NCBI GenBank assembly: GCA_037139515.1
Contig: JBAXGH010000006.1
Span: 1 to 55,089, forward strand
Direction of reading: 5' to 3'
From: a bacterium
GTDB taxonomy: Bacteria > Patescibacteriota > Patescibacteriia > JBAXGH01
Length of the DNA: 55,089 nt
Below, piece by piece: positions 1,810-34,583 of the stretch (positions are counted from its first letter, which is position 1; the number at the start of each line of letters is the position of its first letter). Made by a program: the position numbers and the translations under genes. Under the pieces are notes generated by a model. It was not told the DNA's origin and did no database searches. It was given only the letters and a program-made list of their open reading frames with translations.

Positions 1810-4266
1810 TTATTTCACGAACGCAGAATAGACGCGTTTTCTGAGCGAATGGATGAAGCCAAAGAGGCCGCCTGGGTATTTCTCTTGTATTTCGTCCTTC
1901 TTCGCGTTCATTCCAGGCAATACGAATGTTTGAGCCGATAGATTTTCCTCGCCATTGTTCTTGTACTTCTCCATTATCTCTCGAATCGCGCTACCAATCT
2001 CTTTACCGTGCTGATCGATGGTTGAGGCATTCTGCCGCAGGAAGCTCTTCACACGGTCTTCACGGGTCACCAGAGGGGCGTCAAACGCAATATGGGCGAT
2101 GATATCGAACGTATCAACGTCTTCGAGATTATCAATCGATCTTATTAGTGACACGTTTACCTTTTTTGCTTCAAGATCAGTAATGAGTTGCTCGCGCTTA
2201 TCTGGATCGAGCCAAATTTCCAACAGTTCCTCTGACGAATGCACGATGTGCCCGATCTTATCCTTCGAATACTTTCGGTATTCGGCACGCGATAGCTTGA
2301 TCCCATCAAACTCAATCTCAACTTCCTCGTCAATCGTAACGAGGATTCCTTTGATAGTGATCTTCTTTGGCGCTGCTCTCCATGGCTTCAAACGAAACTC
2401 ATACGGAGTTTCCTCCTCGGTGGCATTCGGCTTGAGCCGTTTGCTCAACTTCTTATAGCTCGCGTGTTCAATACTGATACTAACCTTGTCATTCGACGGC
2501 AAACCAAATAGTTTGAACGCGCCGAACTCATCCGTCTTACCAAGCTTCTCCCAACGCCCAAGCTTTGCTCTTACAACCGCACCAAAAACAGGATTCTCAT
2601 TCTTATCTTCAACCACGATGCCCATCACCAATCTATCAAACGGAGCGATTGGTTCATCTGGGGCTTCGGGCGATTCTGGCTTCTTTGTCGGGATGTCCCA
2701 CTCATCGATCAATCGCGTTGCATTTGTGAAATCAATAATCCTGAAGAACCCCTTGCCTTCAAAAAGTCGCGACCCGCGACCGATGATTTGCTTGAAGAGC
2801 ACACGTGAAGCAATAGGGCGCATGAACACGATATTCTCAACGTGCGGAATATCTACTCCTGTTGAAAGTAAATCAACCGTTGTAGCAACCACGGGTGTCA
2901 TTCTTTCTTTATCACGGAAACGAGTTAGATCGTCTTTATCTTCGGACACAATTCGCGTGGCGTAGTCCTCCCTATTAGTGAGCTGATTGAGCTTATCTTT
3001 GACCGCTTGGGCGTGCTCCATGTCCACGCAGAAAATAATGGTTTTTCCAAACGGATTGGTTCTATTCAAAATCTCAACGACTCGTTTAGATAGAAGTTCA
3101 ATTTGTTCAGGGATTGTGATGGCTCGTTCGTATTCTGAAGGTTCATAAAAATCTTTTACGGTTTCTGGTTCTATTTCGTCATCGTAAATCACCTCCTCAG
3201 CGGAAGCCAAACTTAGACCTTCGCGATAAAGATTCGTAGTGAACTTATAGATCTTGTAAGGCACAAGATAGCCATCCTCGATTGCCTGTCCAAGTGAGTA
3301 TTCAAATACTGGCTCGCCGAAATATTCGTAAACATCAATGTTATCTTCACGCTTTGGAGTTGCGGTCATGCCCAAGTGCTGGGCAGAATGAAAATGATCG
3401 AGAACAATCCCCCAATCACCGAAACGCGAACGGTGGCACTCGTCAATTATGATGAGATCAAAAAAATCTGCTGGTATCTGTTTGTAGAATTCATTCGTGA
3501 ATAGTGTCTGGTAAGTAGCAAAATATATGTTGCGGTTCTTATTGAACTCACCTCCTTCAATCTTGTATCGCGCCTCACCAAATGGCTCGAAATCCCTATC
3601 ATGAGCATCGTCACGAAGAATGACACGATCGCACAGGAAAAGTATTCGACTAATTGTTTTTGATTTCACGAGCTTCCAGACAATTTGAAAAGCAGTGAAT
3701 GTTTTTCCTGTTCCCGTTGCCATGGTAAGAAGCGACGCATGCTTTCCAGAAATAATATTTTCAATCGTGTTTTTTATTGCCGTCTCCTGATAAGCGCGTG
3801 GGCGCTTCGCTCCACTCACGTACGGCGGATACATGAGCGCATCAACTTTCTTATTACCTAAATTCTTCCATTCGATATACGCTTGAAGCATTTCTTCTGG
3901 AGAAAGGTATTTTGTCACTTCATCAGTCTTCAGTGTACGGCGATCATGGAGATACGTTGTTTTTCCATTCGATATGTAAGCAAAAGGGACATCAAGGCGC
4001 TTAGCGTATTCCTGCACTTGGCTCATGTACTTCATTGGGTTTTCGTCCTCTGCTTTTGCTTCGAGCACGGCGAGCGTAATATCTCGGTAAATCAAAACGT
4101 AATCCGCGAACTTCGCAGTTGGCAACCGCTTTGCTTCTTCTACTTCTACAAGAAAACGGTCAGCCGTGATCGGATAATTTCGAAGCAGATATTCCTCCTT
4201 CCACCCATCTTCGTGTATTTTTGGGTCTATTTTTTTTACCCTCGTGTCGTCTTCTGAGTATGGCAT
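1810..4266 (-). CDS. hsdR: Type I restriction endonuclease subunit R (EcoEI-like)
   Basis: Nuclease motif ADY...LEAK, Walker A MATGTGKT, DECHR, MTATP, QIIGRGSR. Confidence 0.93.
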   Translation of the reverse strand: MPYSEDDTRVKKIDPKIHEDGWKEEYLLRNYPITADRFLVEVEEAKRLPTAKFADYVLIYRDITLAVLEAKAEDENPMKYMSQVQEYAKRLDVPFAYISNGKTTYLHDRRTLKTDEVTKYLSPEEMLQAYIEWKNLGNKKVDALMYPPYVSGAKRPRAYQETAIKNTIENIISGKHASLLTMATGTGKTFTAFQIVWKLVKSKTISRILFLCDRVILRDDAHDRDFEPFGEARYKIEGGEFNKNRNIYFATYQTLFTNEFYKQIPADFFDLIIIDECHRSRFGDWGIVLDHFHSAQHLGMTATPKREDNIDVYEYFGEPVFEYSLGQAIEDGYLVPYKIYKFTTNLYREGLSLASAEEVIYDDEIEPETVKDFYEPSEYERAITIPEQIELLSKRVVEILNRTNPFGKTIIFCVDMEHAQAVKDKLNQLTNREDYATRIVSEDKDDLTRFRDKERMTPVVATTVDLLSTGVDIPHVENIVFMRPIASRVLFKQIIGRGSRLFEGKGFFRIIDFTNATRLIDEWDIPTKKPESPEAPDEPIAPFDRLVMGIVVEDKNENPVFGAVVRAKLGRWEKLGKTDEFGAFKLFGLPSNDKVSISIEHASYKKLSKRLKPNATEEETPYEFRLKPWRAAPKKITIKGILVTIDEEVEIEFDGIKLSRAEYRKYSKDKIGHIVHSSEELLEIWLDPDKREQLITDLEAKKVNVSLIRSIDNLEDVDTFDIIAHIAFDAPLVTREDRVKSFLRQNASTIDQHGKEIGSAIREIMEKYKNNGEENLSAQTFVLPGMNAKKDEIQEKYPGGLFGFIHSLRKRVYSAFVK

Positions 4267-4267
4267 A

Positions 4268-4810
4268 TTATTTTCTCACACTATCTGTGAGTAGTTTTTT
4301 CAATAACAGGCTAGTCTTCGCCATTATGTTTTGAGCATGCCGCTCTACCGCTTTTTCTTTTGAAGCTAAAATCATCCCCTTACGAGCAATTTCTTTCTGT
4401 TCCTCAATTGGAATGTAGGGCAAATTATAAATAGCAAAGTTTGTTTTATTGATTGCCTTTTTAGCCGCTCCCCTTGCAAGATCAGCCACAACTTTCTCGC
4501 GAATAAAATTGAAATACAGAGAGTAATACATCAAATCTACTGGGAATTTCCCATTGATCCTTGGTGTAAGAATAAAGCACAGATCGCTCGCAATAAACTT
4601 ACCTTTGATGTAATGCGTTCGCCCTAATGAGCCCCCAGCGCCCATCGCAAATACAAGAGCTTCGCAATCATGCGTATACTCGTTATGAGTTTTCCAATCC
4701 TCACTTGCTGTAACAAATGTAAACTCGCCCTCGGTATTCTTTAGGCTCTGGAGTGAGCCTTTTTCTATATCGAAGAGGTCTTTGATTTGAATTTCTTGCG
4801 CATTAGACAT
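4268..4810 (-). CDS. hsdS: Type I R-M specificity subunit, single TRD (half-size, ~180 aa)
   Basis: Lies between hsdM and hsdR; conserved IPIEEQKEIA helix; ATG at 4810 overlaps the end of hsdM. Confidence 0.8.
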   Translation of the reverse strand: MSNAQEIQIKDLFDIEKGSLQSLKNTEGEFTFVTASEDWKTHNEYTHDCEALVFAMGAGGSLGRTHYIKGKFIASDLCFILTPRINGKFPVDLMYYSLYFNFIREKVVADLARGAAKKAINKTNFAIYNLPYIPIEEQKEIARKGMILASKEKAVERHAQNIMAKTSLLLKKLLTDSVRK

Positions 4811-6254
4811 AGATATTTCGTATTTCAGAAATAACCTTCTGAAGCTGATCAATCTCGGAATCAATATCATTCAGAAGTTTTTCTTCGTCTTGCGTGCCGT
4901 AGTCAATTTCGACTCTATTTGGATTTCTAGGAGAGAGGTTGTAACCATTTTTTGCTACTTCATCCACCTTCAATATCCAAGAGTTGGCAGTGATTTTTCT
5001 TTTCACGCATTTCTCATAAATATCTTCGATGTCAGAGTCTTTGATTGTATTCACTCTGGTAAAATCTCCTGCCAATTCACCGAACCATATATCTTTGGTT
5101 GAACCATTTTTATCAAAAAATATCAGGTTTGTTTTCACTCCAGCACCCATCTGTGTAAATACACTATGTGGGAGTGAAATAATACTGTGCACATTGAACT
5201 TCTCGAGAAGCTCTCTGCGGATTCGAGCCATCGCGCCACCCCCAAACATAATCGTTCCTTCAGGCAGAACAACTCCACAGCGTCCACCATTCTTGAGACG
5301 CTTCATGATGTACTGGAGCGCTAGAGCTTCAGTAGCGCCAACTTGAATAGGAAAGTTATTCTGTACCGTCTTCGTTTCTTCGGCACCAAAAGGTGGATTC
5401 GTTAGGACTACGTCCATCTTCCCGTTTTCTGGCATGTTATGGACATCCTCCATGAAGGTATTTGTACGAGTGATATTCGGCACGAGAATATGATGCAGAA
5501 TCAAATTCATGGTTCCGATTAGAAATGGTAGTGGCTTCTTTTCCTGACCATAAAAGGTCTTCGTCTGAAGTGTCCTCCACGTATGCACGTCTTTGGGTGA
5601 TGCCTTGTAAATATGATCAAAACTTTCTACTAAAAAGCCGCCCGATCCCACGAACGGATCAAGTATCGTTTCGCCAATTTTAGGATTCACAATCCTAACC
5701 ATCAGGCGAATGACGGGACGAGGCGTATAAAACTCACCCGACCAGCCACCCTCGCTCCCCATTGCTTGCAGAATCTCTTCATAAACCTGTGAGAGAAGGT
5801 GCGTGTCTTGGAAATGATGTTTCTGAATCTTGTCGAGAACTTCAACAACATCGAGCAAATTATGCGGTGAGCGAATACGATTCCCCGATAGCTCACGAAA
5901 AATCTCTCCAATTTTATCCTTTTCTCGCGTGCCTTTCAGACTCTTGAGGTATGGAAAGAGTTTTTGATTTATGAAAAAGATGAGCTCGTCTTTGTCCTTC
6001 CAGTCTTTCTTTGCCCACGATGACCATTGGTACTCCGCATCAATGACTGGTTTGTATTTTTTCCCCTCTGCCTCTTCGAGCTCCTTGAGTTGACCCTCTA
6101 CGCCTTCAAAAACTCTCAAGAATAGAAGCCACGAGAACTGTTCGATGTAATCTTTTGCGCCAACTCCATCGTCACGACGAAGAATATCGCACACGCGTTT
6201 GATGTCTGACTTTGTGAGGCTATTTAGTTTTGGCTGATCGTCACTCTGCTTCAT
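4803..6254 (-). CDS. hsdM: Type I R-M N6-adenine methyltransferase
   Basis: GEFYTPR, motif I DPFVGSGGFL, motif IV NPPF; start moved to MKQSDD because the longer ORF overlaps the controller gene. Confidence 0.93.
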   Translation of the reverse strand: MKQSDDQPKLNSLTKSDIKRVCDILRRDDGVGAKDYIEQFSWLLFLRVFEGVEGQLKELEEAEGKKYKPVIDAEYQWSSWAKKDWKDKDELIFFINQKLFPYLKSLKGTREKDKIGEIFRELSGNRIRSPHNLLDVVEVLDKIQKHHFQDTHLLSQVYEEILQAMGSEGGWSGEFYTPRPVIRLMVRIVNPKIGETILDPFVGSGGFLVESFDHIYKASPKDVHTWRTLQTKTFYGQEKKPLPFLIGTMNLILHHILVPNITRTNTFMEDVHNMPENGKMDVVLTNPPFGAEETKTVQNNFPIQVGATEALALQYIMKRLKNGGRCGVVLPEGTIMFGGGAMARIRRELLEKFNVHSIISLPHSVFTQMGAGVKTNLIFFDKNGSTKDIWFGELAGDFTRVNTIKDSDIEDIYEKCVKRKITANSWILKVDEVAKNGYNLSPRNPNRVEIDYGTQDEEKLLNDIDSEIDQLQKVISEIRNIYV

Positions 6255-6302: not shown

Positions 6303-6376
6303 GACTATGAGTACCTTTTCGTACGCAAATATAGCACCCTTGATGTGATACTCATAGTCCGTCGCCTTATAGTCAT
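6303..6376. promoter_or_regulatory. C-box-like operators between hsdM and the controller gene
   Basis: GACTATGAGTA (6303-6313) is inverted to TACTCATAGTC (6349-6359); a further CTTATAGTC at 6366-6374; resembles GACT-N3-AGTC C-boxes. Confidence 0.6.
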
Positions 6377-6396
6377 CTCCGCAATACGCTTGTGGA

Positions 6397-6615
6397 GTGA
6401 AAAACGATGAGATTCTCAAAAAATTCGGTAAGCGAGTTAGAGAGCTTCGCTTACAAAAAGGCATCACCTCTCAAATGGCTTTAGCGTATAAAGCTCGTTT
6501 GGATCGCACCTATATCGGAGGTATCGAGCGCGGAGAGCGGAATATCGCTTTGATTAGCATTGAAAAAATCGCCAAAGCTCTCGAAGTGGATTTATCGAAT
6601 CTATTCAAATTTTAG
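6397..6615 (+). CDS. XRE HTH regulator, R-M controller (C protein)-like
   Basis: FGKRVRELR...SQMALA...LDRTYIGGIERGERNI. Confidence 0.85.
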   Translation: MKNDEILKKFGKRVRELRLQKGITSQMALAYKARLDRTYIGGIERGERNIALISIEKIAKALEVDLSNLFKF

Positions 6616-25043: not shown

Positions 25044-25406
25044 TGGTGGAGGTGGTGGGAATCGAACCCACGTCCGAAAAGGATCTACAGGGTGCATCTT
25101 CGCGCGTAGCTTCATGATCGGCGATGTTCCGCCCTCGGTTCACGAGCAAACCGGCTTGGGTCTTGACCCTCGCGGCGCATCACAATCTGTCTTATTTTCC
25201 CGTAGCTGTGATACCCGGGAAAACCAGCCTCACATTCTGCATCAGTTCACTCGCTTGAGGCGCGCAAGTGGCTGATGCCGGAGTTCATAGTCTCCGGAAC
25301 TGACCCATTCAGGCGGCAGTTTGGGGTTTGCCCGTGATTTACGTGGCCTCGGGCACCACGGCGCGCAGCATCCAGCTTCATCTCTCCGTCGAAACCTGTC
25401 ACCCCC
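25044..25406 (-). ncRNA. ssrA: tmRNA
   Basis: 5' GGGGGTGACAGGTTTCGAC and 3' GACGTGGGTTCGATTCCCACCACCTCCACCA; G3:U70 pair; PK1 (CGTGG/CCACG, TGCCCG/CGGGCA); 363 nt. Confidence 0.96.
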
Positions 25407-25481
25407 TCAAAACTGATTACACTATAATCAACTTTGAGGGAACGCGCACCGGTGTGAACACGGTGCGGAAAGAGGAAAAGT

Positions 25482-26012
25482 TCAGGTATAGGTGCAGAGC
25501 GCATCTTCGTCGTTCATGCAGTCGTGCGAGGGGTAGCGGCTGAAGCTCCGAAAGAATTCCGGCTTCAGAACAGTACACTCGCCCGGCTCATGTTGAGCAA
25601 AGAAGTGCGCGAAAGTGACGGCGACCGCGTAAGAAACGTTGTGCTTCAGCTTGCGAACCACGTCCCCATTCACTTCCTCAACCACGCGCCAGCCTTTGCG
25701 CTCTACATCGCGATGATCAAAGCAGCTGCAGGTGCGGTTCCCGTATCGGACACAAACAACCGAACTCGGAAAATGGGTTTCGGCTCGAAGATCTTCTTCG
25801 CACCTCGGCCTGGCGTAGTGCTCGGTGTAGACATAGTCGGGTGATTTTTCATCCCCCGCTCGTCCGAAATAGTCGATGGCCTCGGCATAGGTCGGAAACT
25901 TTCTGAGGGCCGAAAAAGTCTCGTTCGCCTCGATGATGTTTCCAACGGTCCGGATGCCGACCCAGAACTCTTCTTGAACCTTCACAACGTCCAACAAGTT
26001 TTCTGCGCTCAT
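25482..26012 (-). CDS. Hypothetical protein
   Basis: GGAGG RBS before the ATG at 26012. Confidence 0.65.
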   Translation of the reverse strand: MSAENLLDVVKVQEEFWVGIRTVGNIIEANETFSALRKFPTYAEAIDYFGRAGDEKSPDYVYTEHYARPRCEEDLRAETHFPSSVVCVRYGNRTCSCFDHRDVERKGWRVVEEVNGDVVRKLKHNVSYAVAVTFAHFFAQHEPGECTVLKPEFFRSFSRYPSHDCMNDEDALCTYT

Positions 26013-26087
26013 GTGAGCCTCCGTATCAGTGCGGAAAGAGGTTATCCCTTTCCTTCTCAAAAGCTCGAGTTACAAATCGAGCACTTA

Positions 26088-26916
26088 AGAAGAAACGGGA
26101 GCTAGAGTTTCCTCCAGCCCCCGTGCGTCCCTTGCGGGAAGAGTCAGTAGCGAGTTTAGAGAGGGTTGGCGATAACACAGTTACGCAAAGTCCCTTTTCT
26201 ATCTCGCTTGCATCCTTGGAGGATTCATCATGAGGCGCTTCGCGAACTGCGCTGCCCCAAATGTCCCGTCCCAAGAGGTACTACTGTCAGATGACGTTTG
26301 CCAAGGTCGCAGACCCTAGCATTCGTCTTATCTTACGCCGCTCCATTCGGAGCAAGGCGCGGGTGTGCGTGAGCTCGGTTGACGCCGACTCCGCCCTTCA
26401 CCCGGGATTCCTTGCGAGCGGTTGTCATTCCACTCCAAGGCTATCTCTCGATTCCCTCCTTTCACCCCTTTGGGGATCCCGGAAGGTGGCAAGAAGGGCT
26501 GCGAACCCCACCGAGGATTTTGGCCCTCGAACCTGCACGTAAGGCGTCTGTCTGCCTTGCGCCGTCGCCCCAATTAGGAGCTCCGCTTTGACACTTGACC
26601 CAATGTTTACCGGTCGAACTTCCTTTAACCAGGCGAGTATTCAGCTACAGGCTACGGCCCGTGCCTAGTCGTCGCTCCGGCAGAAGTCCTATCCCTTCAC
26701 GAACGCTTTTGCATTCGCTACAGGCTTTTGCCCTTCCTTACGCTCGTCGCATCCCCGTATCCTCCTTGAAGGTTTGTTCGGGTCAGCTCGGATTGTTTCG
26801 GTCGGGCGAGGTTCCGGCACTCCCTCATCGATATGATTGGCTCATTCGAGCCGATCTAAAGTTTCGATTCTTTCGAAGCTTCGGATCGGCTCGAAGTGCC
26901 TTGCGTCATCATCACG
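26088..26916 (-). ncRNA. Candidate large structured ncRNA (~830 nt)
   Basis: Consensus promoter upstream, terminator hairpin at the 3' end, many short hairpins, no credible ORF. Confidence 0.6.
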
Positions 26917-26922
26917 AGCAGT

Positions 26923-26951
26923 ACTATAACACGATTTCAAATTTCTGTCAA
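26923..26951 (-). promoter_or_regulatory. Sigma70 promoter
   Basis: TTGACA-17bp-TATAGT. Confidence 0.85.
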
Positions 26952-27119
26952 GCGTCTAGTGTTCATGCTCTGACATTTTTGCTCTGTTGCAGGCATTAAT
27001 TGTCTATTTCTAGCTTTATTTTCAATGCTGTCATCCTTCGCCATTATTGTTGTCATCCCGAAGCCGAGGCATCTTGAAATGTGTTTTCCGAATCCTGCGA
27101 AGAGGACTAACTCTTAAGA

Positions 27120-27208
27120 CGTCGTCCTTGAAACTCGAGCACGAGTTATCAAGGATCCATGTTGGTCATGGGTCCAGGGTAAAGTCTGCTGACTTTTCGA
27201 GGATGACG
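27120..27208. repeat. REP-like palindrome related to 20801-20883
   Basis: Shares GAAACTCGAGCACGAGTTATC (inverted) and the CGAGGATGACG terminus. Confidence 0.7.
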
Positions 27209-27287
27209 AAGTGATTACCCCTCTTTGTTTGAATCCTATCTTTGGGCGGCAGATAGGCGTGCCTTTTTTAAAAGCCCCAACTAGACT

Positions 27288-27485
27288 TCAGTGTCCGAAA
27301 CGGTTTTCGCGATGAAGACGCCCGCGGCGGCCATGCTTGATCTCCGCCGCCATCATGGCGAGCGGCTGGAATTCGGGCGAATCCTCGCCATCAACCGAGC
27401 ACTCGAGCATCTCGAGGAGCTTCAACCCCCCGAAAGGCCCGTCGAAAACGTTCTGGGAATTTTTCTTCCCGCTTTCTCGCGCCAT
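27288..27485 (-). CDS. Small hypothetical protein (65 aa)
   Basis: GGAGG RBS before MARESGKK. Confidence 0.5.
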   Translation of the reverse strand: MARESGKKNSQNVFDGPFGGLKLLEMLECSVDGEDSPEFQPLAMMAAEIKHGRRGRLHRENRFGH

Positions 27486-27612
27486 ACTTCCTCCGCTTCT
27501 CGCCAAGTGGCGAGAAATGAAAACTGGAGCCCTATGCCCCACCGAAGTTTTCGAGTCGCTCAAAGCGTCTCAAAAATTTTGGTGGGGGTGGAAGTTTTGA
27601 GGACTTCCAAAC

Positions 27613-28140
27613 CTATTCCGCGAGGTAGCGCTCGATCCCAATGCGGAGAGCGCCTTCATCGTCGGGGGTGACGTCCATTTTGCAAGAGCCATCACAGGTC
27701 GTCGTCGTGACCTTGTGCGAACAACCCTTCGTCGGGTCATGCGCCCAGTCGAAGCTTGTGTGAACTTCGACGTGGTGAGTGCCGGTGCAAAAGCTGTCGC
27801 TCGAACTGCTACGCTTTCCGTAGCTAGTATCGAACCGACGGCCCGAAATTGCACCATCACGCGCGAACATCTCCGCCGAACCCGCGTCCAACTCAACCGG
27901 GTCTTCGACGATTCTGTCGCCTTCAACCAGAGACTTTCCTCCGCGGAGCTTTTGAAGCTCGACACGAAGGTCCGCCTCCTTCCTGCACGAACCATCGCAG
28001 TCACCTTCGACCGCAACGTCGTTCCTCGACTCGCCCGTATGACCGAAGTCATCGAGCGTCTTGCAGATGTGCTGCTTGCCGTCGCAAAAATGCAACGTCT
28101 CCCAGCCATCCGACCAGCCATGCTGATGCTTGCGCATCAT
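27613..28140 (-). CDS. Cys/His-rich hypothetical protein with repeated CDGSC motif
   Basis: GGAGGATTC-ATG; CDGSCRK and CDGSCKM repeats. Confidence 0.6.
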   Translation of the reverse strand: MMRKHQHGWSDGWETLHFCDGKQHICKTLDDFGHTGESRNDVAVEGDCDGSCRKEADLRVELQKLRGGKSLVEGDRIVEDPVELDAGSAEMFARDGAISGRRFDTSYGKRSSSSDSFCTGTHHVEVHTSFDWAHDPTKGCSHKVTTTTCDGSCKMDVTPDDEGALRIGIERYLAE

Positions 28141-28218
28141 GAATCCTCCATGCCTCGCCTTTTCAGGAGAGGACTTGTGGGTTGTGAATTGCAGTTGGGA
28201 TTATCCCACCCTCACAAG

Positions 28219-28323
28219 CTACCGCTTCTTGTTCGCCACGAACAGAGCTATCGTGGCTCGAAGAACAGGTATCTGTGAGAGAAGAACAAATCCGAGAACC
28301 AGCCACTGTGCCTGGACGCTCAT
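28219..28323 (-). CDS. 34-aa hydrophobic peptide MSVQAQWLVLGFVLLSQIPVLRATIALFVANKKR
   Basis: AAGGAGG RBS 5 nt upstream of the ATG; below the ORF-track cutoff. Confidence 0.5.
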   Translation of the reverse strand: MSVQAQWLVLGFVLLSQIPVLRATIALFVANKKR

Positions 28324-28466
28324 AAGCGCCTCCTTGGAGCAGGATGCCCCACCAAAAATCTCAAATTGATTTGAAAGCTTTGGTGAAGCTGCAAGGTATT
28401 CGGTCTTTTATTTCCTTGCTTTCCTCTTTTTTTTATCGTGCGGTCAGACGAGGAATCCGCACTAGC

Positions 28467-28682
28467 CTACCCTTCATAGTAGGCTTCTACCCGTGACCGA
28501 AGATCCCGATCTCGCCAGCAGAGTTTGAGGATTCGCGCCTCATCTCTGTCGGTGATTTCGAGCTTCTTCCCATGAATGACTTCGCAGCCACTCAGGGTCA
28601 CGCCGGTTGCACATCCCAACCGGAGATCGACACGAATGTGCCGACCGCGATAGCGGATTTCATGGCAGTCATAGGTCGCCAT
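28467..28682 (-). CDS. Small protein, paralog 1 (YRGR family)
   Basis: Alignable with 29150-29356; AAAGGGG RBS. Confidence 0.7.
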   Translation of the reverse strand: MATYDCHEIRYRGRHIRVDLRLGCATGVTLSGCEVIHGKKLEITDRDEARILKLCWRDRDLRSRVEAYYEG

Positions 28683-28699
28683 GCTCACCCCTTTCTGGC

Positions 28700-28975
28700 C
28701 GAGTTGTCGGCCGGTAGTTAGTAAGGAAATGCGCGTGCGGGATTCTCAGGTCGGGAATGGCTTTTGGCCACCTGAGTCTTTATCCGCTTACGTTTCGCGC
28801 CAACGCCTGTGACTGGCGGTCACAGGAAGGATTGGTTCGGAAGCGTCCTGGCCTCATCAAGAGTGTCTAGGGCTTGCCGAGCCCGGGATTGCGAACTTCC
28901 GCAACCTTTTCGACTCTCTCGCTGTACCTTTTCGCTCCGAGCCTATCGAGGACCTTTCAGTACCCCGGAACCCGC
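28700..28975 (-). ncRNA. Structured RNA motif 1, copy a
   Basis: Conserved blocks and hairpins shared with 29375-29625. Confidence 0.65.
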
Positions 28976-29149
28976 TTGAAAGTTCATTGAAAACTCTCAA
29001 GCTGGTCCCGGGATAGTGGCCCCACCGAAGCATTCGAGTCGTCTCAAATGTTTTGGTGAAGCCCGCAAGTTTCTGAAAATTCTCAGAAACCTGCGTGACG
29101 GTGACGGCTCGTTAGGCCCCCTGGAGCTTCCCCAGAGAATTACGGCCGA

Positions 29150-29356
29150 TCAGTCGGCATCTCCCAGCGTTCGGGCGCCCTTGCATTCGGGCTTCCGATC
29201 GATGAGCATGTCCAGCCGGCGCATGTCGCGCTCGGTGAACATGAGTGGCGCCCCTCGGAGGATTTCAATTCCTCCTCCCTCGAGGCTACCGTACCGCAGT
29301 GTCACCCGAAGGAGACGACCACGGTAGTACAGCTCACAACCCGTGTACCATGCCAT
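29150..29356 (-). CDS. Small protein, paralog 2 (YRGR family)
   Basis: Alignable with 28467-28682; AAGGAGG RBS. Confidence 0.7.
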   Translation of the reverse strand: MAWYTGCELYYRGRLLRVTLRYGSLEGGGIEILRGAPLMFTERDMRRLDMLIDRKPECKGARTLGDAD

Positions 29357-29374
29357 GGTGGCCTCCTTGGTGGG

Positions 29375-29625
29375 TTAGAGAAAGTAAGTCGGGCAACTTA
29401 TGGGTTATATCTGCTTTGGCGGTGGTGGGACATTGTCCCGCGCCTTGCAGACGTTTCCCATTCACATTGCGGCCCGTTTCACAACGCCTGATTTTGGCTG
29501 ATCAGGGGGGATCAGGATTACGCTTCCTGGCCTCGACACGATTTGAGTTAGGGCTGCCAGGCCCGCTCAAACCATGCTGTACCTTTGGCGCTTTCCCGTT
29601 TCGAGGACCCCTCGGAACCCCGTTT
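29375..29625 (-). ncRNA. Structured RNA motif 1, copy b
   Basis: Conserved blocks and hairpins shared with 28700-28975. Confidence 0.65.
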
Positions 29626-29769
29626 CAGTCATCGAGTATCGATGCTTGAAATGGGATTCCGAAGTGATCATCGTAGAGCTCTATGCCCCATCGAAGAGTC
29701 TGATTTTTCAGACGCTTTGATAGAGCCCGCACGAAAGCAGTGAAGCTCTTCGTGCGGAAGAAAGCAGAC

Positions 29770-30025
29770 TCGGGTTGGTGCAACACTTGCGTGTTGACTT
29801 GGCCCCGAGTTTTTGCCCGACCACTTTTCCGGTCAGGACTTTTCTTTCGAAGGGGCCCAAGCGACCCTCCGAAAGATACGCGGACATTCAGCCCATTTTC
29901 GTCGGAACCGCGAACCGACGATTATCCTTCCCGGTGCACTAGGGAGGGCGGGCCACGGAGGGTGACTTCATGCACCCTTGCAAGACAGATCGGCGCCGAT
30001 CCGTGCTTGCAAGGCTCCGTGGAGC
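29770..30025 (-). ncRNA. Structured RNA motif 2, copy A
   Basis: 35/37 nt identical block and compensatory stems versus 30103-30385. Confidence 0.65.
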
Positions 30026-30102
30026 AGTCTATAGCGTCCTCAAAATCGAGCGGCGCCCGTTATCTCGACGTAGCTGCTCAGCCACCTCCGAGGCGGTAGG
30101 GT

Positions 30103-30385
30103 TCGGGTTGGTTCAACACTTGCGTGCTGACTTGGCCCCTTGCCCTATTGTGTCCTCTACCGTCTCCGGTGAGGATTCTTGCGTTCTCCAAGGCGCCCAA
30201 GCGAGCCTCGGATAATCGTGGGCTAAGTTGCCTCATTTACTCCTCTCGCCCCACGCGTCGAGAGAAGCTATCCTCCGTGGTGCACTTCGGAGGCTGAGGG
30301 GTGTTGCGCACGACGGGTGATACTGCTGCACCCCTCACGAGTCGGCCGGAAATCGGTCCGACGCTCGCGAGTTCCGTCGTGTCTT
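30103..30385 (-). ncRNA. Structured RNA motif 2, copy B
   Basis: 35/37 nt identical block and compensatory stems versus 29770-30025. Confidence 0.65.
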
Positions 30386-30559
30386 ACTCGCCCGCCGCTT
30401 CCTCTTTCGAAGCCCGCGGGTCGGTGAAATTTTATTTACTGGCAGTCTTCGCTCGCCAGGCGTCCGGGAACTGCCCCCAGATTTTAACGAAGCCTGTGAC
30501 CCGGGCCGTCGGGGCGAGATACTTGACTCGCAACGTTTAGACTTCTTGGCCGGATGGGT

Positions 30560-30937
30560 TCAGGTCTTGGGCACCGACGGAATCACTTCCGCCGGCAGGT
30601 CGCGCAAGACCTTCTTCACCTCCTCCGTTTGACCGGTGAGGCTGAAGTAGTCCTTGCATCCCTGGCGCTCCTCGGCGCTATCCACTTCCTTGAGTCCCAT
30701 CCTTTCCACCGCAATCGCTCTTCCCAGACACCACTGCCCCATATTTTCCGGGGCGAGCGGCTCGAAGAAGAACATCTGCAGGGCGGCCATGACTATCGCG
30801 CTGAGGCTCATCTGTTTCTCCGCATGCCTCACCATCCCTGGCGAGGACTTGTGATTTTGGAGCTCCTTGCTCCGCCGAAGAGCCTGGTTTGTCAGGCGCT
30901 TGAGTGGAGCAAGGAGTCTTTCGAGTTGGTCTGTCAT
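30560..30937 (-). CDS. Hypothetical protein, nearly leaderless
   Basis: ATG 13 nt downstream of a consensus -10. Confidence 0.6.
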   Translation of the reverse strand: MTDQLERLLAPLKRLTNQALRRSKELQNHKSSPGMVRHAEKQMSLSAIVMAALQMFFFEPLAPENMGQWCLGRAIAVERMGLKEVDSAEERQGCKDYFSLTGQTEEVKKVLRDLPAEVIPSVPKT

Positions 30938-30950
30938 CTCGCTGGGCAGG

Positions 30951-30979
30951 ACTATAACATAAACTTTTAATTATGTCAA
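30951..30979 (-). promoter_or_regulatory. Sigma70 promoter
   Basis: TTGACA-17bp-TATAGT. Confidence 0.85.
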
Positions 30980-31117
30980 GTGTCAGGTGTACATGGCAAG
31001 TTTATTTATCTAAAATGAGCCGATTTATAAACTAATAAACAACATGACTGTCCGTGATAGTGTATTTGAAAATTGAAAAATCACCACTCTTGATGGTGAT
31101 TTTCATCGACAAATCCA

Positions 31118-31387
31118 TTATCTCAACTTTCGATAGATCGAATGGTCTCCAACGCGCAATAATTCGACGATATTCCCCTCCTTAAATCGAAATGCAACTC
31201 GATTGTGATAGTCGACGCTGAAGGACCAGCGATTTTTATGATTTGAAAGCTTGTGCGTTTTGAGAAGTGGATGAAACGGATTTTCTTGAAAAAGACGCCC
31301 GCGAACTTTTACCGATTCCCGGATAGAGACGGGCAGTTTTTTGTAATCGCGTTTAAACTCCGGGGCATAAAATATTTCGTATCCCAT
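31118..31387 (-). CDS. Type II toxin, RelE/YafQ family mRNA interferase
   Basis: FKRDYKKL...NPFHPLLKTHKL...WSFSVDYHNRV...VGDHSIY. Confidence 0.9.
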   Translation of the reverse strand: MGYEIFYAPEFKRDYKKLPVSIRESVKVRGRLFQENPFHPLLKTHKLSNHKNRWSFSVDYHNRVAFRFKEGNIVELLRVGDHSIYRKLR

Positions 31388-31395
31388 ATATACGA

Positions 31396-31671
31396 TTAGG
31401 CATCCAGATCATCCCAATTTTTCAGCTTTTTAGCCTTCCCGGCATCACACAATCGTTCAGCTTCAGCGACAAGTTTATCTAGATGCTTCATATCGTAGGC
31501 ATAACTATCTGCAACGAGAGCATTATAAGTTTCAACGTCTAACATCACCGCCTCGGGAACGCTGTTATTGATAATGAGAACCGCATCATGGCTTTTCTTG
31601 GCAGAGTCAATCACGGCACGATAGTTTCGCTGCAAATCCCGCACGGAATATGTTTGGGTAATAGATGTCAT
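31396..31671 (-). CDS. Type II antitoxin, Phd/YefM family
   Basis: SVRDLQRNY...VLIINNSVPEAVML; directly upstream of the toxin; TTGACT-17-TAGTAT promoter. Confidence 0.9.
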   Translation of the reverse strand: MTSITQTYSVRDLQRNYRAVIDSAKKSHDAVLIINNSVPEAVMLDVETYNALVADSYAYDMKHLDKLVAEAERLCDAGKAKKLKNWDDLDA

Positions 31672-31726
31672 ACGCTGACATACTATTGTATGTAAAATTA
31701 TAAGTCAAGAAACTATCCTCAAATCA

Positions 31727-31775
31727 AAAACCCCATCAGAGACTTCGAGGATGCTTGAAGCTTCTGATGGGGTTT
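31727..31775. repeat. Intergenic palindrome family member
   Basis: AAAACCCCATCAGA...TCTGATGGGGTTTT; near-identical arms at 32504-32549. Confidence 0.75.
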
Positions 31776-31855
31776 TGCATTTTATCCTGCCCTATCGAAG
31801 CTCAGAAATATTTCCGAGTTTTGATAGGGAGAGAAGGCCGGAGAACTCGAAGTTC

Positions 31856-32266
31856 TCAACGCCTTCCCACTGACCCGCGAGCGAGCGGGATCCTTTGATC
31901 AGGGTCGATGGTCACGGTCCGGATTCCGATTCGCAGGGCGAGGTGGCCCTTCGTATCCCGAACGTACCAACCGCTCTGTTTCGAGCATTGCGCCCTACCA
32001 AAAACCGCTTCGCCGGTTCCAGTCGAGATTTTGATCTCGACGCACTCCATCTTTCGATGGAGACGACGGAACTCGTCGATGCAGTAATAGTAAGCGCACC
32101 ACTCGCCTTTCTCGAGATGCGGCTCGACAAAATAGTCCGAGCCGCCGTGGAGTGCGCAAGTCTCCACTATCTGTGCGGCCTCTCCAGCCCACTCGTCGGC
32201 ATGGGCCTGCAACTTGCCCCACACCTTCGGCGACGAAGCGGCCACGATTTTGATGTGTGTACCCAT
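31856..32266 (-). CDS. Hypothetical protein
   Basis: GGAGGATTC-ATG; 5' UTR shared with 27613-28140. Confidence 0.65.
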   Translation of the reverse strand: MGTHIKIVAASSPKVWGKLQAHADEWAGEAAQIVETCALHGGSDYFVEPHLEKGEWCAYYYCIDEFRRLHRKMECVEIKISTGTGEAVFGRAQCSKQSGWYVRDTKGHLALRIGIRTVTIDPDQRIPLARGSVGRR

Positions 32267-32588
32267 GAATCCTCCTGTGCCTCGGTTTTCAAGCGAGGAC
32301 TTGTGAGGGTGTTTGTTGCCGGCAATGACCGCTTGCCAAGCGCCCCGGAGCTTCCCCGGAGTATTACGGCCGAATATGTCGGCATCAGTTTGCGACTCAT
32401 GATCGTAGACGGGATTTGTGCACCGATATTCCGGTACACCCGTTCGTTCGATCAGAGCCATATATTTTCAATTTTGTCTTATTCTGAGATTTTGATTTTC
32501 ACCAAAACCCCATCAGAAGCTTCAAGTGTTCTTGAAATCTCTGATGGGGATGGGAGTATCGTGAGACTCCCGGCTCTTTGCATGCCTC

Positions 32589-32990
32589 TCAGTGATCCTT
32601 TTTCTTCGCCGTGAAGTACTTCATTTGAACATACTTGGCGAGAGCGAGGATAACGAGTATCGGCGTGCAAACCTCGCGGAACACCGGCATGCACAACAGC
32701 ATGATGCCGGTCACGGCGAGCCAGAACGTAATGCTCTTCAGGCATTCCTCATGGAGGATACCCAAGGGCACCGCGCCGATCATGGCGCCGACAAGAATCT
32801 GTCGGCTGCCATCGTCTGCGTTTGTCGTGAAGAATACGACAACTCCGGCGAGGACCGCGACCGCGAGCGCGATGAAGGCGCCCTGCCGGATCGCCGCCTC
32901 CGCCGGGGTGTGGTGCCGCGTCGCGACGATGGTCGCAACAAGAATCGCGAGCGGAACCAACCACCACATGGAAACGATGAGCTCAGCCAT
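32589..32990 (-). CDS. Small multi-pass membrane protein
   Basis: About four hydrophobic segments; AAAGGA RBS. Confidence 0.7.
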   Translation of the reverse strand: MAELIVSMWWLVPLAILVATIVATRHHTPAEAAIRQGAFIALAVAVLAGVVVFFTTNADDGSRQILVGAMIGAVPLGILHEECLKSITFWLAVTGIMLLCMPVFREVCTPILVILALAKYVQMKYFTAKKKDH

Positions 32991-33467
32991 GGTGCGTTCC
33001 TTTCCGGAGCCTGTGGCTCTCAAGGGTGGGTCCAAAGAACTTTACTTCGCGCGAGGGGACAGTCCCCTGCGGCTTTGGGGACGGTCCCCGTCGCGCGAAT
33101 TACCATTTCATCCAGAATAGAGGGATGGAAAGCATTCGGGGTTCTGACTTCGTTCGGCGGGCGCCCCTATAAAGAAGGCAAGTTGCCGAAATCGGAGACG
33201 TACTGACCGGTGCTTCCAACACTCTATTCTGAGCGAAATACGTTTGTCAAAGACTGCAAACCTTTTTCTGACAAGCAATATAACACATTCCGGCAAACAT
33301 GTCAAGAGATTACTTAACGCTTTATCAGCAATAACTTATTATACGGCTTATATAAGCTATTATTTGTATGTTATCTTCAACGTACAAAGTATACTTTTAC
33401 GATATATCAAAACACCTGGCATTAAAGTCAGGTGTTGACAAATTATGACAAGTGTGTTAGTATACTG

Positions 33468-33807
33468 TTACGCACAACCAGAACATCGACTCGCGATGGT
33501 CGCGGAACCGGTGACTTTACAGAAGTGCGTAGAATTCGGAGACCGAAATGATCGGCGGAAACTGCTAGGCAGGAGAAAACACGAGAAATTAGAAAAACTT
33601 TGCGCCCCCTGGCAGGAGCGCAAGTAACAGTCTCATGACAAGCTACTTGCCTTCGAGGCTGTGAAGGAAAAACTCAAAGCATCCCCACCTACCGCTTGCT
33701 CCCGATCCCCCTTTGCCAGGAGGTGACCCATGATCGGTGCATAGCACCACCCTACCGCCGAGCGTAACATCCACTAGGGATGCGAAACTCGACGCGGGTG
33801 GTTTTTT
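33468..33807 (+). ncRNA. Candidate structured ncRNA (~340 nt)
   Basis: TTGACA...TAGTAT/TATACT promoter at 33435-33466, 3' hairpin with T tract, internal stems. Confidence 0.45.
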
Positions 33808-34583
33808 TATTCCTTGACTTCTAGTCTTGCCACTTCTTTGTGAGCAAGCGAGAATAATTTTCTCATTGCATCAGCAATGGCTTTATTTTCCATTATCACT
33901 GAATACATTTTTCCTTCGAAAGTTACAAACATTATTTTATTACCGTAAACTGCGATATTCGCCTTAAACCTTCCCATTTCTGCCGGAAGATATCTTAGCG
34001 CACATTCATCATTTTTTTCACCTGATAAAACCCCTAACGCTTCAACCGGCTCTCCGCCAAAATATATTCCACGCACACAAGATTTTGCCTTTATTACTGA
34101 CTCCTTCAATGGCTTTAGCTCTCCCGGCATAAATGTCGCTCGAACGGCTTCGATGTCAGAAATCTCATCAATCTGCTTTGACTGCGCGGACTGCATGTCT
34201 GCAAGGATATTCCGCACGCCCTCTTTACCCTCAAACATGCGCACGATTGGCTTTTCACCGCCCAAAGACAATTCCAATTCCGGAACCACGCGTTCGAGCT
34301 CCGAAATTTTTTCTTTCATCTCAACCTCGCGGCGGCGCGCATAGGCGAGTAATTTCTCCGGATGTTCGGCGGCAAATAACTTTTTCTTTTCAACCATGAC
34401 GCTCGCCATGATGCCGCGCGCAATCAAAGATTCGATCGCGACATAAACCGCCTGACGCGATAATCGTGTTGATTTTGTTAGCTGAATCACGGTTCCCGGA
34501 CCATGTCCGAGCGCCGCCATGTAAGTCTTGATTTCGCTCTCGAGAAGTCCGAGCGACTGGAGAATTGGCTTGATGTCTTTCAT
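33807..34583 (-). CDS. TrmB-family transcriptional regulator (paralog of 15022-15813)
   Basis: LGLLESEIKTY...TRLSRQAVY; FEGKEGV. Confidence 0.88.
   Translation of the reverse strand: MKDIKPILQSLGLLESEIKTYMAALGHGPGTVIQLTKSTRLSRQAVYVAIESLIARGIMASVMVEKKKLFAAEHPEKLLAYARRREVEMKEKISELERVVPELELSLGGEKPIVRMFEGKEGVRNILADMQSAQSKQIDEISDIEAVRATFMPGELKPLKESVIKAKSCVRGIYFGGEPVEALGVLSGEKNDECALRYLPAEMGRFKANIAVYGNKIMFVTFEGKMYSVIMENKAIADAMRKLFSLAHKEVARLEVKE

Follow-up and report, generated by a model that had tools for sequence, protein, structure and literature searches.

On the minus strand of a 55,089-nucleotide stretch of DNA from a bacterium of the Patescibacteriota (Patescibacteriia, JBAXGH01; GenBank assembly GCA_037139515.1, contig JBAXGH010000006.1, positions 1 to 55,089), hereafter called the window, we identified a conserved and covarying RNA structure that is strictly linked to one family of small proteins and has been duplicated together with it. 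Two tandem units of ~650 nt apiece occupy positions 29,730-28,460, each consisting of a structured RNA core of ~180 nt (240-300 nt including a 5' hairpin) followed by a small open reading frame (ORF). We rate this RNA-protein module as new, although structured 5' leaders are in general a familiar type of element. Concerning its function, we tentatively favour a cis-acting leader that would be bound by its own protein product and would thereby give translational feedback.

A covarying RNA linked to a single protein family

The upstream unit, A, encodes a 68-aa protein (ORF A, 29356-29150) of the family that we designate MAWYT..YRGR, with an AlphaFold2 model of ~80 in predicted local distance difference test (pLDDT), and unit B encodes its 71-aa paralogue (ORF B, 28682-28467). 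The start of ORF B is most likely the ATG at 28682, which we prefer over the GTG at 28688 given in the ORF list because every relative begins with MAWY or MATY. The initial annotation, made from the letters of the window, had aligned the two proteins and had pointed out conserved blocks and two hairpins shared by their leaders, and all of this is borne out. An alignment of 51 aa puts the identity of the proteins at 43% (E 2e-10); the blocks are found in both leaders (for example AAAGGTACAGC at 29586-29576 and 28931-28921), as are the GGGC/GCCC hairpin with its YGGCA loop (29564-29551 in A, 28884-28870 in B) and the CCUG..CAGG hairpin with its GCCA loop (29506-29487 in A, 28826-28806 in B). Both leaders fold more stably than their own shuffled versions (z -4.5 and -3.2), with none of 100 shuffles matching them. 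Plain blastn finds no connection between leader A and leader B, which argues for an old duplication and not a recent repeat: the RNA and the ORF were copied together in tandem, and both have since diverged.

Protein pattern scans recovered four outside loci, namely one in a metagenome-assembled genome (MAG) labelled Gammaproteobacteria (L001), one in a MAG of Candidatus Saccharibacteria (L002), and two near-identical groundwater contigs (L003 and L004) whose protein is annotated 'Patescibacteria group bacterium'. The label 'uncultured Gammaproteobacteria' of L001 may be wrong, as this MAG measures ~1.1 Mb and its TrmB neighbour (see below) is 53% identical to that of the window. In all six loci that were read, five of them distinct, the RNA stands directly upstream of the protein gene and on the same strand, with ~95-125 nt between the end of the core and the ATG, and in the three whole genomes it occurs solely in this position. 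No terminator-like site is listed between RNA and ORF and a Shine-Dalgarno sequence is present in every copy, which indicates that the RNA belongs to the mRNA.

An alignment of the five distinct sequences made with MAFFT only and folded with RNAalifold contains 48 consensus pairs, 23 of which show compensatory changes. We also built a covariance model, a check that the initial annotation had proposed. This model, R1 (142 positions, 39 pairs), was trained on L001, unit A, and L002, and it independently recovers unit B (28951-28789; 56.3 bits, E 1.5e-11) and the groundwater copies L003/L004 (29.3 bits, E 3.4e-5). It gives no further match over 79 kb at E up to 10, and nothing in the 55-kb window beyond unit B and the training copy, unit A. 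In the alignment fitted to the model, 90.3% of the cells are paired, as against 70.1% after shuffling and 34-43% when partners are slid by one to three columns. Changes on both sides affect 25 of the 39 modelled pairs, a value reached by 0 of 500 shuffles, a count that is not a probability and that refers to five distinct sequences in an alignment fitted to the model itself. Homologues have therefore kept both the covariation and the link to the protein, and the earlier proposal of a new structured RNA with its cognate protein holds, although these data do not distinguish among the options then offered (riboswitch-like, ribozyme-like or ribonucleoprotein RNA).

The core, whose helices we name P1 to P8 (P0 and P9 lie on either side; all these names are coined here), opens with a conserved UUCCGRGG block, followed by the short hairpin P2, which closes with CCUCG. 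A long-range helix, P3, encloses P4, in which GGU pairs with GCC inside the invariant blocks AAAGGUACAG and GAGGCCAGGAAG. P5 is variable among homologues, and in unit B an additional hairpin is inserted there. The loop of hairpin P6 reads UGGCA throughout, except for CGGCA in unit B. P3 is followed by the junction AAUCCNCC, by the hairpin P7, whose stems vary around a constant GCCA loop, by P8 (CGUYR with YRAUG), and finally by the 3' end of the core, GGRA, which can pair with UUCC to form P1. Next in the downstream direction come a long and variable hairpin, a tract rich in pyrimidines (CUUUCUU / ACCACC in three to four of the five sequences), the Shine-Dalgarno sequence, and the start codon, where an invariant AUGGC echoes the UGGC of the P6 loop. 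The initial annotation had suggested that the P6 and P7 loops could kiss: UGGC and GCCA are indeed mutually complementary, and they are invariant in all five distinct homologues, so that covariation speaks neither for nor against such a contact.

In unit A the core extends over 29445-29628 (helices P1-P8 from RNAalifold; R1 match at 29606-29463, 133.5 bits, for a training sequence), with the P6 loop reading CUGGCA. It is preceded by the long 5' hairpin P0 (29610-29664), in which the conserved UUCCGAGG block supplies the 3' strand and which forms in the minimum-free-energy fold with pair probabilities of ~1.0 when the flank is included. The stretch before the ORF (29357-29452) holds the variable hairpin P9 (~29452-29411), the pyrimidine-rich tract, and a Shine-Dalgarno sequence, AAGGAGG (29368-29362). 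Unit B has the same helices plus the extra P5 hairpin in a core at 28772-28978. Its P0 (28961-29015), in which CCCGGGACC pairs with GGUUCCGGG around an enclosed hairpin, has a dG of -19.4 and a probability of ~1.0, and its pre-ORF stretch (28683-28775) contains a variable hairpin, a local hairpin, and the Shine-Dalgarno sequence AAAGGGG (28694-28688).

The UUCCGRGG block has two competing partners. In four of the five sequences it pairs strongly with the strand upstream of it, at -21.7 (A), -19.4 (B), -18.8, and -14.5 kcal/mol, whereas the corresponding value in L001 is only -6.6 kcal/mol; with its downstream partner the values range from -4 to -9.5 kcal/mol. When the flank is included in the fold, units A and B as well as L002 form P0 with a probability near 1. 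P0 is mutually exclusive with P1 and P2, and its formation would release CCUCG, which is bound to the Shine-Dalgarno sequence in the folds of L001 (0.78) and L003 (0.99).

The RNA matches no known family; such a match would have spoken against its novelty. A cmscan of the whole window with the 4227 families of Rfam 15 at the gathering score returned only a tmRNA and a single tRNA, neither of them within the units. On the region itself, scans at E up to 5-10 produced hairpin noise of the miRNA type (at most 27 bits against cut-offs of 82-95) and an SAH match inside ORF A with 17.5 bits against a cut-off of 37, and no riboswitch, T-box, or known ribozyme model matched the RNA at E up to 10. In the outside loci the Rfam scan was likewise silent on the motif. 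A literature search at the level of titles and the beginnings of abstracts found no report of such an RNA. We also considered a type III toxin-antitoxin system (ToxIN-like), which is made of short tandem RNA repeats, a terminator, and then an endoribonuclease toxin of ~170 aa. It was rejected: no short tandem array is listed in the leaders, what is repeated is the entire 650-nt cassette, no terminator is listed, and the protein has 68-71 aa and matches nothing in PADLOC or Pfam.

Early searches gave three relatives of the protein, and an all-against-all HMMER comparison gave one. A profile search then assembled 46 database clusters, which together with two MAG copies make an alignment of 48 sequences. 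All come from metagenomes or MAGs, and the only names among them are Patescibacteria or Minisyncoccia MAGs. Lengths range from 67 to 86 aa, save for two members with N-terminal extensions that look like miscalled starts. Invariant or nearly so over the 48 sequences are M1, A2, W3, Y4, R10, R12, G13, R14, L15, R21, Y22, G23, G35, P37, L38, and R54. AlphaFold2 predicts strands at 4-11, 14-21, and 24-34, followed by two helices (pLDDT 80.5 with nine sequences, 79.5 with 48), and W3, Y4, R10, R12, G13, R14, R21, Y22, and G23 map onto the predicted beta-hairpins. A surface of aromatic residues and arginines is typical of RNA binders. Neither protein has a match in Pfam, PHROGs, or PADLOC, which are likewise silent on nearly all ORFs of the island, and the best result of a sequence profile search against the PDB had an E of 1.2.

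Both partners are very rare. In the genome to which the window belongs (1.33 Mb, 99.96% complete), R1 finds the two copies only and blastn adds none. It finds none in 150 relatives, all listed as of the same class or more distant, and one copy apiece in the genomes of L001 and L002, at the protein gene. A strict RNA pattern run over one genome per species (185,579) returned the two known contigs and two matches inside coding sequence, in the rpsP region of an Arthrobacter and in an ORF of Anaeromyxobacteraceae, which we set aside as due to chance. Across 401 genomes of the phylum, the protein profile gave a convincing match in its own genome only; two weak matches (E 0.005-0.008) were discarded, one having internal stops and the other lying within a 241-aa open frame. 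Further scans for DNA loci of the protein led to the same two contigs again. A viral (phage) origin was also rejected, as pattern scans of viral contigs found no relative of the protein and no occurrence of the RNA.

Cassette boundaries and the surrounding island

The units are delimited by copies of a hairpin that we call E, all on the minus strand. E4 (29669-29732; repeat families D1/D13) lies upstream of unit A, E3 (29008-29068) between the two units, E2 (28330-28395) downstream of unit B, and E1 (27520-27594) one cassette beyond E2; a model of the hairpin, R2, scores them at 75.8, 70.6, 74.6, and 71.5 bits, respectively. A weaker copy at 30853-30916 separates small-ORF cassettes in the same manner. 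The consensus has 17 pairs, five of them compensatory, and comprises an outer stem (GCUUCACC/GGUGGGGC), an internal loop (CAAARC / CUUCG), and a variable inner hairpin, followed by a tail, GCAUAGRGCUCC, that could form an alternative hairpin with the 3' strand. We regard E as a candidate processing signal or new ribozyme. An interpretation as intrinsic terminators was discarded on account of the U-rich tail being present in E1 only, and so was one as integron attC sites, with no R''/R' core sites by eye and no integrase among the Pfam-scanned ORFs, no dedicated tool having been applied.

Strong copies of E are confined to this island. Among the 150 relatives, R2 finds weaker but convincing look-alikes (24-33 bits) in six. 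In one of these (relative G441, locus L029, 1238-2273, minus strand) two E-like hairpins 707 nt apart surround a 300-nt leader and an 86-aa membrane or hydrophobic ORF, and the next cistron is a 79-aa zinc-ribbon-like ORF, so the cassette architecture is shared and the cargo is different. Arrays composed of a boundary element, a long leader, and a tiny ORF thus recur in this class, and the MAWYT unit is one of their cargoes.

In the Saccharibacteria locus the boundaries are of another nature. By Rfam E-value and whole-genome scans, L002 carries five type III hammerheads on the plus strand (2926-2991, 3778-3831, 4509-4562, 5328-5370, and 6466-6519). They score 25-44 bits, under the cut-off of 48.5, and their alignment reveals the canonical core, CUGAUGAG..CGAAAC, along with covariation in stems I and II. 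They divide the island into units of ~0.7-1.1 kb, and the unit made of the RNA and its ORF is exactly the piece from the third to the fourth hammerhead, ~810 nt. Direct repeats (2828-2932 and 6369-6472), 93-94% identical, enclose the array and extend into its first and its last hammerhead, a layout that would permit the RNA to be excised or circularised. The same contig has a sixth hammerhead at a distance of ~22 kb. The window and its own genome have no match to RF00008; a scan at E up to 5 brought up no hammerhead, and the core pattern is absent from the island. The spacing between a stop codon and the boundary that follows it is similar in the two genomes, with 72-82 nt in the window and ~105 nt in L002.

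As described by Perreault et al. (2011; PMC3088659), clustered hammerheads flank single genes in prophage regions and were proposed to cut long transcripts into gene-length mRNAs. L002 resembles these clusters in its five canonical type III hammerheads on one strand, with one of the resulting units being this RNA and its ORF. The window differs from what is described there in having E instead, in the absence of any phage structural or integrase gene among the scanned ORFs, and in its host, a member of the Candidate Phyla Radiation (CPR). Our literature search found no paper joining 'hammerhead ribozyme' and 'Patescibacteria'.

On the groundwater contigs, a repeat of ~65 nt stands on both sides of the unit (L004 788-910, L003 616-951), and a 40-aa ORF overlapping the 5' end of the RNA shares its N-terminus (D.LV.PLLETI) with a downstream ORF of 111 aa. 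From its sequence, this cassette looks as if it had been inserted with duplication of the flank.

The two units of the window sit in an ~8-kb stretch (~25,400-33,200) with 54-58% GC, compared with ~48% for the genome, and few long ORFs. The L002 island, of 3.5 kb, has 47-49% GC against ~30% for its host, and that of L001 is also GC-rich relative to its host. Among the ORFs of the ~8-kb stretch scanned with Pfam, the only domains found were a Phd/YefM antitoxin, a weak match to a ParE/YafQ-like toxin, and one marginal, sub-threshold domain of unknown function, with no integrase, transposase, reverse transcriptase, or phage structural gene. The first two form a type II toxin-antitoxin pair at 31118-31671 on the minus strand (E 2.2e-10 for Phd/YefM, 0.002 for the ParE/YafQ-like partner). 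Upstream of the units and on the same strand is a TrmB-family regulator (33807-34583; Pfam PF01978, E 2.9e-08). It is the upstream neighbour in the three loci out of three that reach far enough, being 53% identical to that of the window in L001, whose MAG measures ~1.1 Mb, and 22% in L002. At its other end the island is directly bordered by the tmRNA gene (25044-25406, minus strand, 130 bits); it lies 5' of this gene, not at the usual 3' integration site.

Other features of the island were noted. At 26951-26095 on the minus strand, a near-consensus promoter (TTGACA, 17 nt, TATAGT, 26951-26923) and a strong intrinsic terminator (26124-26095) enclose ~830 nt that contain no convincing ORF, match nothing in Rfam, and may encode a large non-coding RNA. 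Immediately upstream of unit A there is a second tandem pair on the minus strand (30440-30100 and 30100-29740), made of ~335-nt repeats with blocks 85-95% identical, each with hairpins and its own short ORF (the one at 30236-30078 has 52 aa and is preceded by a good Shine-Dalgarno sequence, whereas the one at 29887-29708 has 59 aa and lacks such a sequence). A short repeat found at 28149-28179, 30823-30853, and 32275-32305 comprises a hairpin and a Shine-Dalgarno sequence (cacaagtcctc..gaggca..ggaggattcatg) and precedes ORFs of 175 aa and 136 aa. A 48-nt repeat, 81% identical between its copies at 29102-29149 and 32326-32373, lies after ORF A and before the 136-aa ORF. In L001, a run of 100 N (3071-3170) lies between two identical promoter-bearing repeats of 55 nt.

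Candidate functions of the RNA and its protein

In the autoregulatory reading that we tentatively favour, each unit would be a single cistron with a long structured 5' leader and a gene for a protein of 68-71 aa, probably freed from a longer transcript at its flanks, through putative processing at the E hairpins in the window and through the type III hammerheads in the Saccharibacteria relative. The protein, whose predicted three-stranded sheet carries the invariant tryptophan/tyrosine and arginine residues and is followed by two helices, would bind the folded core and, once bound, would feed back on the translation of its own message. Three candidates for the switch may be named: the pairing of UUCCGRGG with either the upstream strand or CCUCG and GGRA, the pairing of CCUCG with the Shine-Dalgarno sequence, and the pairing of the GCCA loop, for which the UGGC loop and the start-site AUGGC would compete. 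The RNA keeps to the strand of one protein family, with a short spacing that is constant, and this fits a protein-specific cis leader better than a metabolite riboswitch. Metabolite riboswitches normally serve several gene families, and an RNA associated with a single family is the pattern of protein-specific leaders. Autoregulatory leaders bound by their own product are known for the ribosomal proteins L10, L20, and S15 and of the phage T4 gp32/RegA type; the RNA described here resembles them in being a structured 5' untranslated RNA that is tied to the gene of one protein family, lies on its strand, and keeps a constant short spacing to its start codon. It differs from them in its ~180-300 nt and eight helices with a probable loop-loop contact, and in a partner with no recognised RNA-binding fold and no known second natural RNA target, for which binding is a prediction.

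Several observations weigh against this reading. Most protein operators are far smaller and less elaborate than this RNA. Structure searches recognised no RNA-binding or other fold for the protein, in line with the silence of Pfam, PHROGs, and PADLOC: Foldseek against the PDB gave nothing at E <= 0.001, the best Z in VIA wide was 4.2, the best E in BFVD was 0.096, and the ESM Atlas offered no usable match by features and structural neighbours only at a TM score of ~0.5. The loop-loop pairing, being invariant, comes without covariation support. Moreover, the predicted partner of the Shine-Dalgarno sequence differs among homologues: it is free in unit A, has a local partner in unit B, pairs with CCUCG in L001 and L003, and is mixed in L002. 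Since this pairing is inconsistent both with and without the 5' flank, we do not claim a defined switch; the RNA appears to have the elements for one, while the predicted mechanism is inconsistent across homologues. Finally, the RNA sample consists of five distinct sequences, and the DNA around the 40-odd other proteins of the family lies outside it.

A possible alternative, if an unlikely one, is a stable ribonucleoprotein acting in trans, in which the cistron would be excised and the RNA would stay on the protein, with a job of its own in a mobile, conflict-type island, similar to other elements in which the 5' region of the protein gene harbours the partner RNA. The setting would suit it, with a GC-rich island of orphan small ORFs and a Phd/ParE-like pair in the window, and in L002 a unit held between two hammerheads of a GC-rich island flanked by direct repeats; the RNA and the protein also duplicate and diverge as a pair. 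However, with its 68-86 aa the protein falls below the size of any known enzymatic effector, no effector domain was found nearby, and the scanned ORFs include no integrase, transposase, or reverse transcriptase. Orphan non-coding RNAs upstream of a partner gene include the raiA motif and the HEARO/omega RNA upstream of IscB. Like these, the present RNA is complex, conserved, ~200 nt long, and placed 5' of a specific gene, with a function that cannot be deduced from sequence; unlike them, it has no Rfam match to those families and its partner measures just ~70 aa.

We consider it unlikely that the RNA is a riboswitch or a T-box-like sensor, whose core would bind a small molecule or the 3' end of a tRNA and so switch the translation of the small protein; in one variant, the UGGC loop could pair with the NCCA end of a tRNA, which the GCCA loop would mimic. 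The size, the multi-helix core, the invariant junctions, and the likely loop-loop contact are typical of ligand aptamers, and a conserved, aptamer-like core with covarying helices is what we found. The mutually exclusive pairings of UUCCGRGG and CCUCG, with P0 at -14.5 to -21.7 kcal/mol in four of five sequences against the much weaker downstream pairing, and the CCUCG-Shine-Dalgarno pairing in two of five folds, are also of the kind that such a sensor would use. Yet riboswitches serve several gene families with a shared metabolic or transport theme, and here one orphan protein without any such theme follows the RNA in all six loci. In addition, the Rfam riboswitch and T-box models are silent at E up to 10, the predicted expression platform varies between homologues, and the RNA is very rare, with no copy in the 150 relatives and two other genomes in the strict pattern scan over 185,579 species. 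Large translational riboswitches with a regulatory kissing loop are exemplified by the cobalamin class, and T-box leaders may be set beside them. The present RNA shares with both a multi-helix core, invariant complementary loops, and a possible sequestration of the ribosome-binding site. It departs from both in having no Rfam match and in preceding an orphan protein of ~70 aa in place of metabolic, transport, or aminoacyl-tRNA synthetase genes.

A broader proposal, which we hold to be improbable, is that the islands represent new RNA-processed cassette arrays in the CPR, in which successive cistrons, each a long structured leader with a tiny ORF, would be separated by dedicated RNA elements. 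The cutters would be hammerheads in one lineage, whereas in this lineage and several relatives E, as a new self-cleaving motif or processing signal, would replace the hammerhead; the MAWYT RNA and protein would form a stable ribonucleoprotein with an activity of its own, going beyond a regulatory leader. Most doubtful is a catalytic or purely structural RNA without a ligand, that is, a self-cleaving or self-ligating ribozyme, or a 5' stabiliser or translation enhancer of a processed mRNA: new ribozyme classes have been found beside hammerheads, hammerheads flank the L002 unit, and cleavage at E4 or E3 would leave P0 at the extreme 5' end of the transcript, but in L002 a second cleaver would have no obvious role in a unit already flanked by hammerheads on both sides, no known ribozyme model matches, and a stabiliser would have no need of an RNA of ~180 nt whose junctions and loops stay invariant in genomes that range over 30-60% GC.

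Relevance for the Candidate Phyla Radiation

Genomes of the CPR are streamlined, at ~1 Mb, and yet this one has retained two copies of an RNA of ~180 nt and eight helices. Its conservation through compensatory changes, across hosts in which the local DNA ranges from ~30% to 60% GC, marks it as a working RNA. It thus joins, as a new class, the few large RNAs of bacteria with no assigned function, and its defined protein partner makes it testable. A cassette bounded by hammerheads in one genome and by a different hairpin in another also provides a natural experiment on how multi-cistron transcripts are processed, and the contrast between the two boundaries is a lead to a possible new processing motif.

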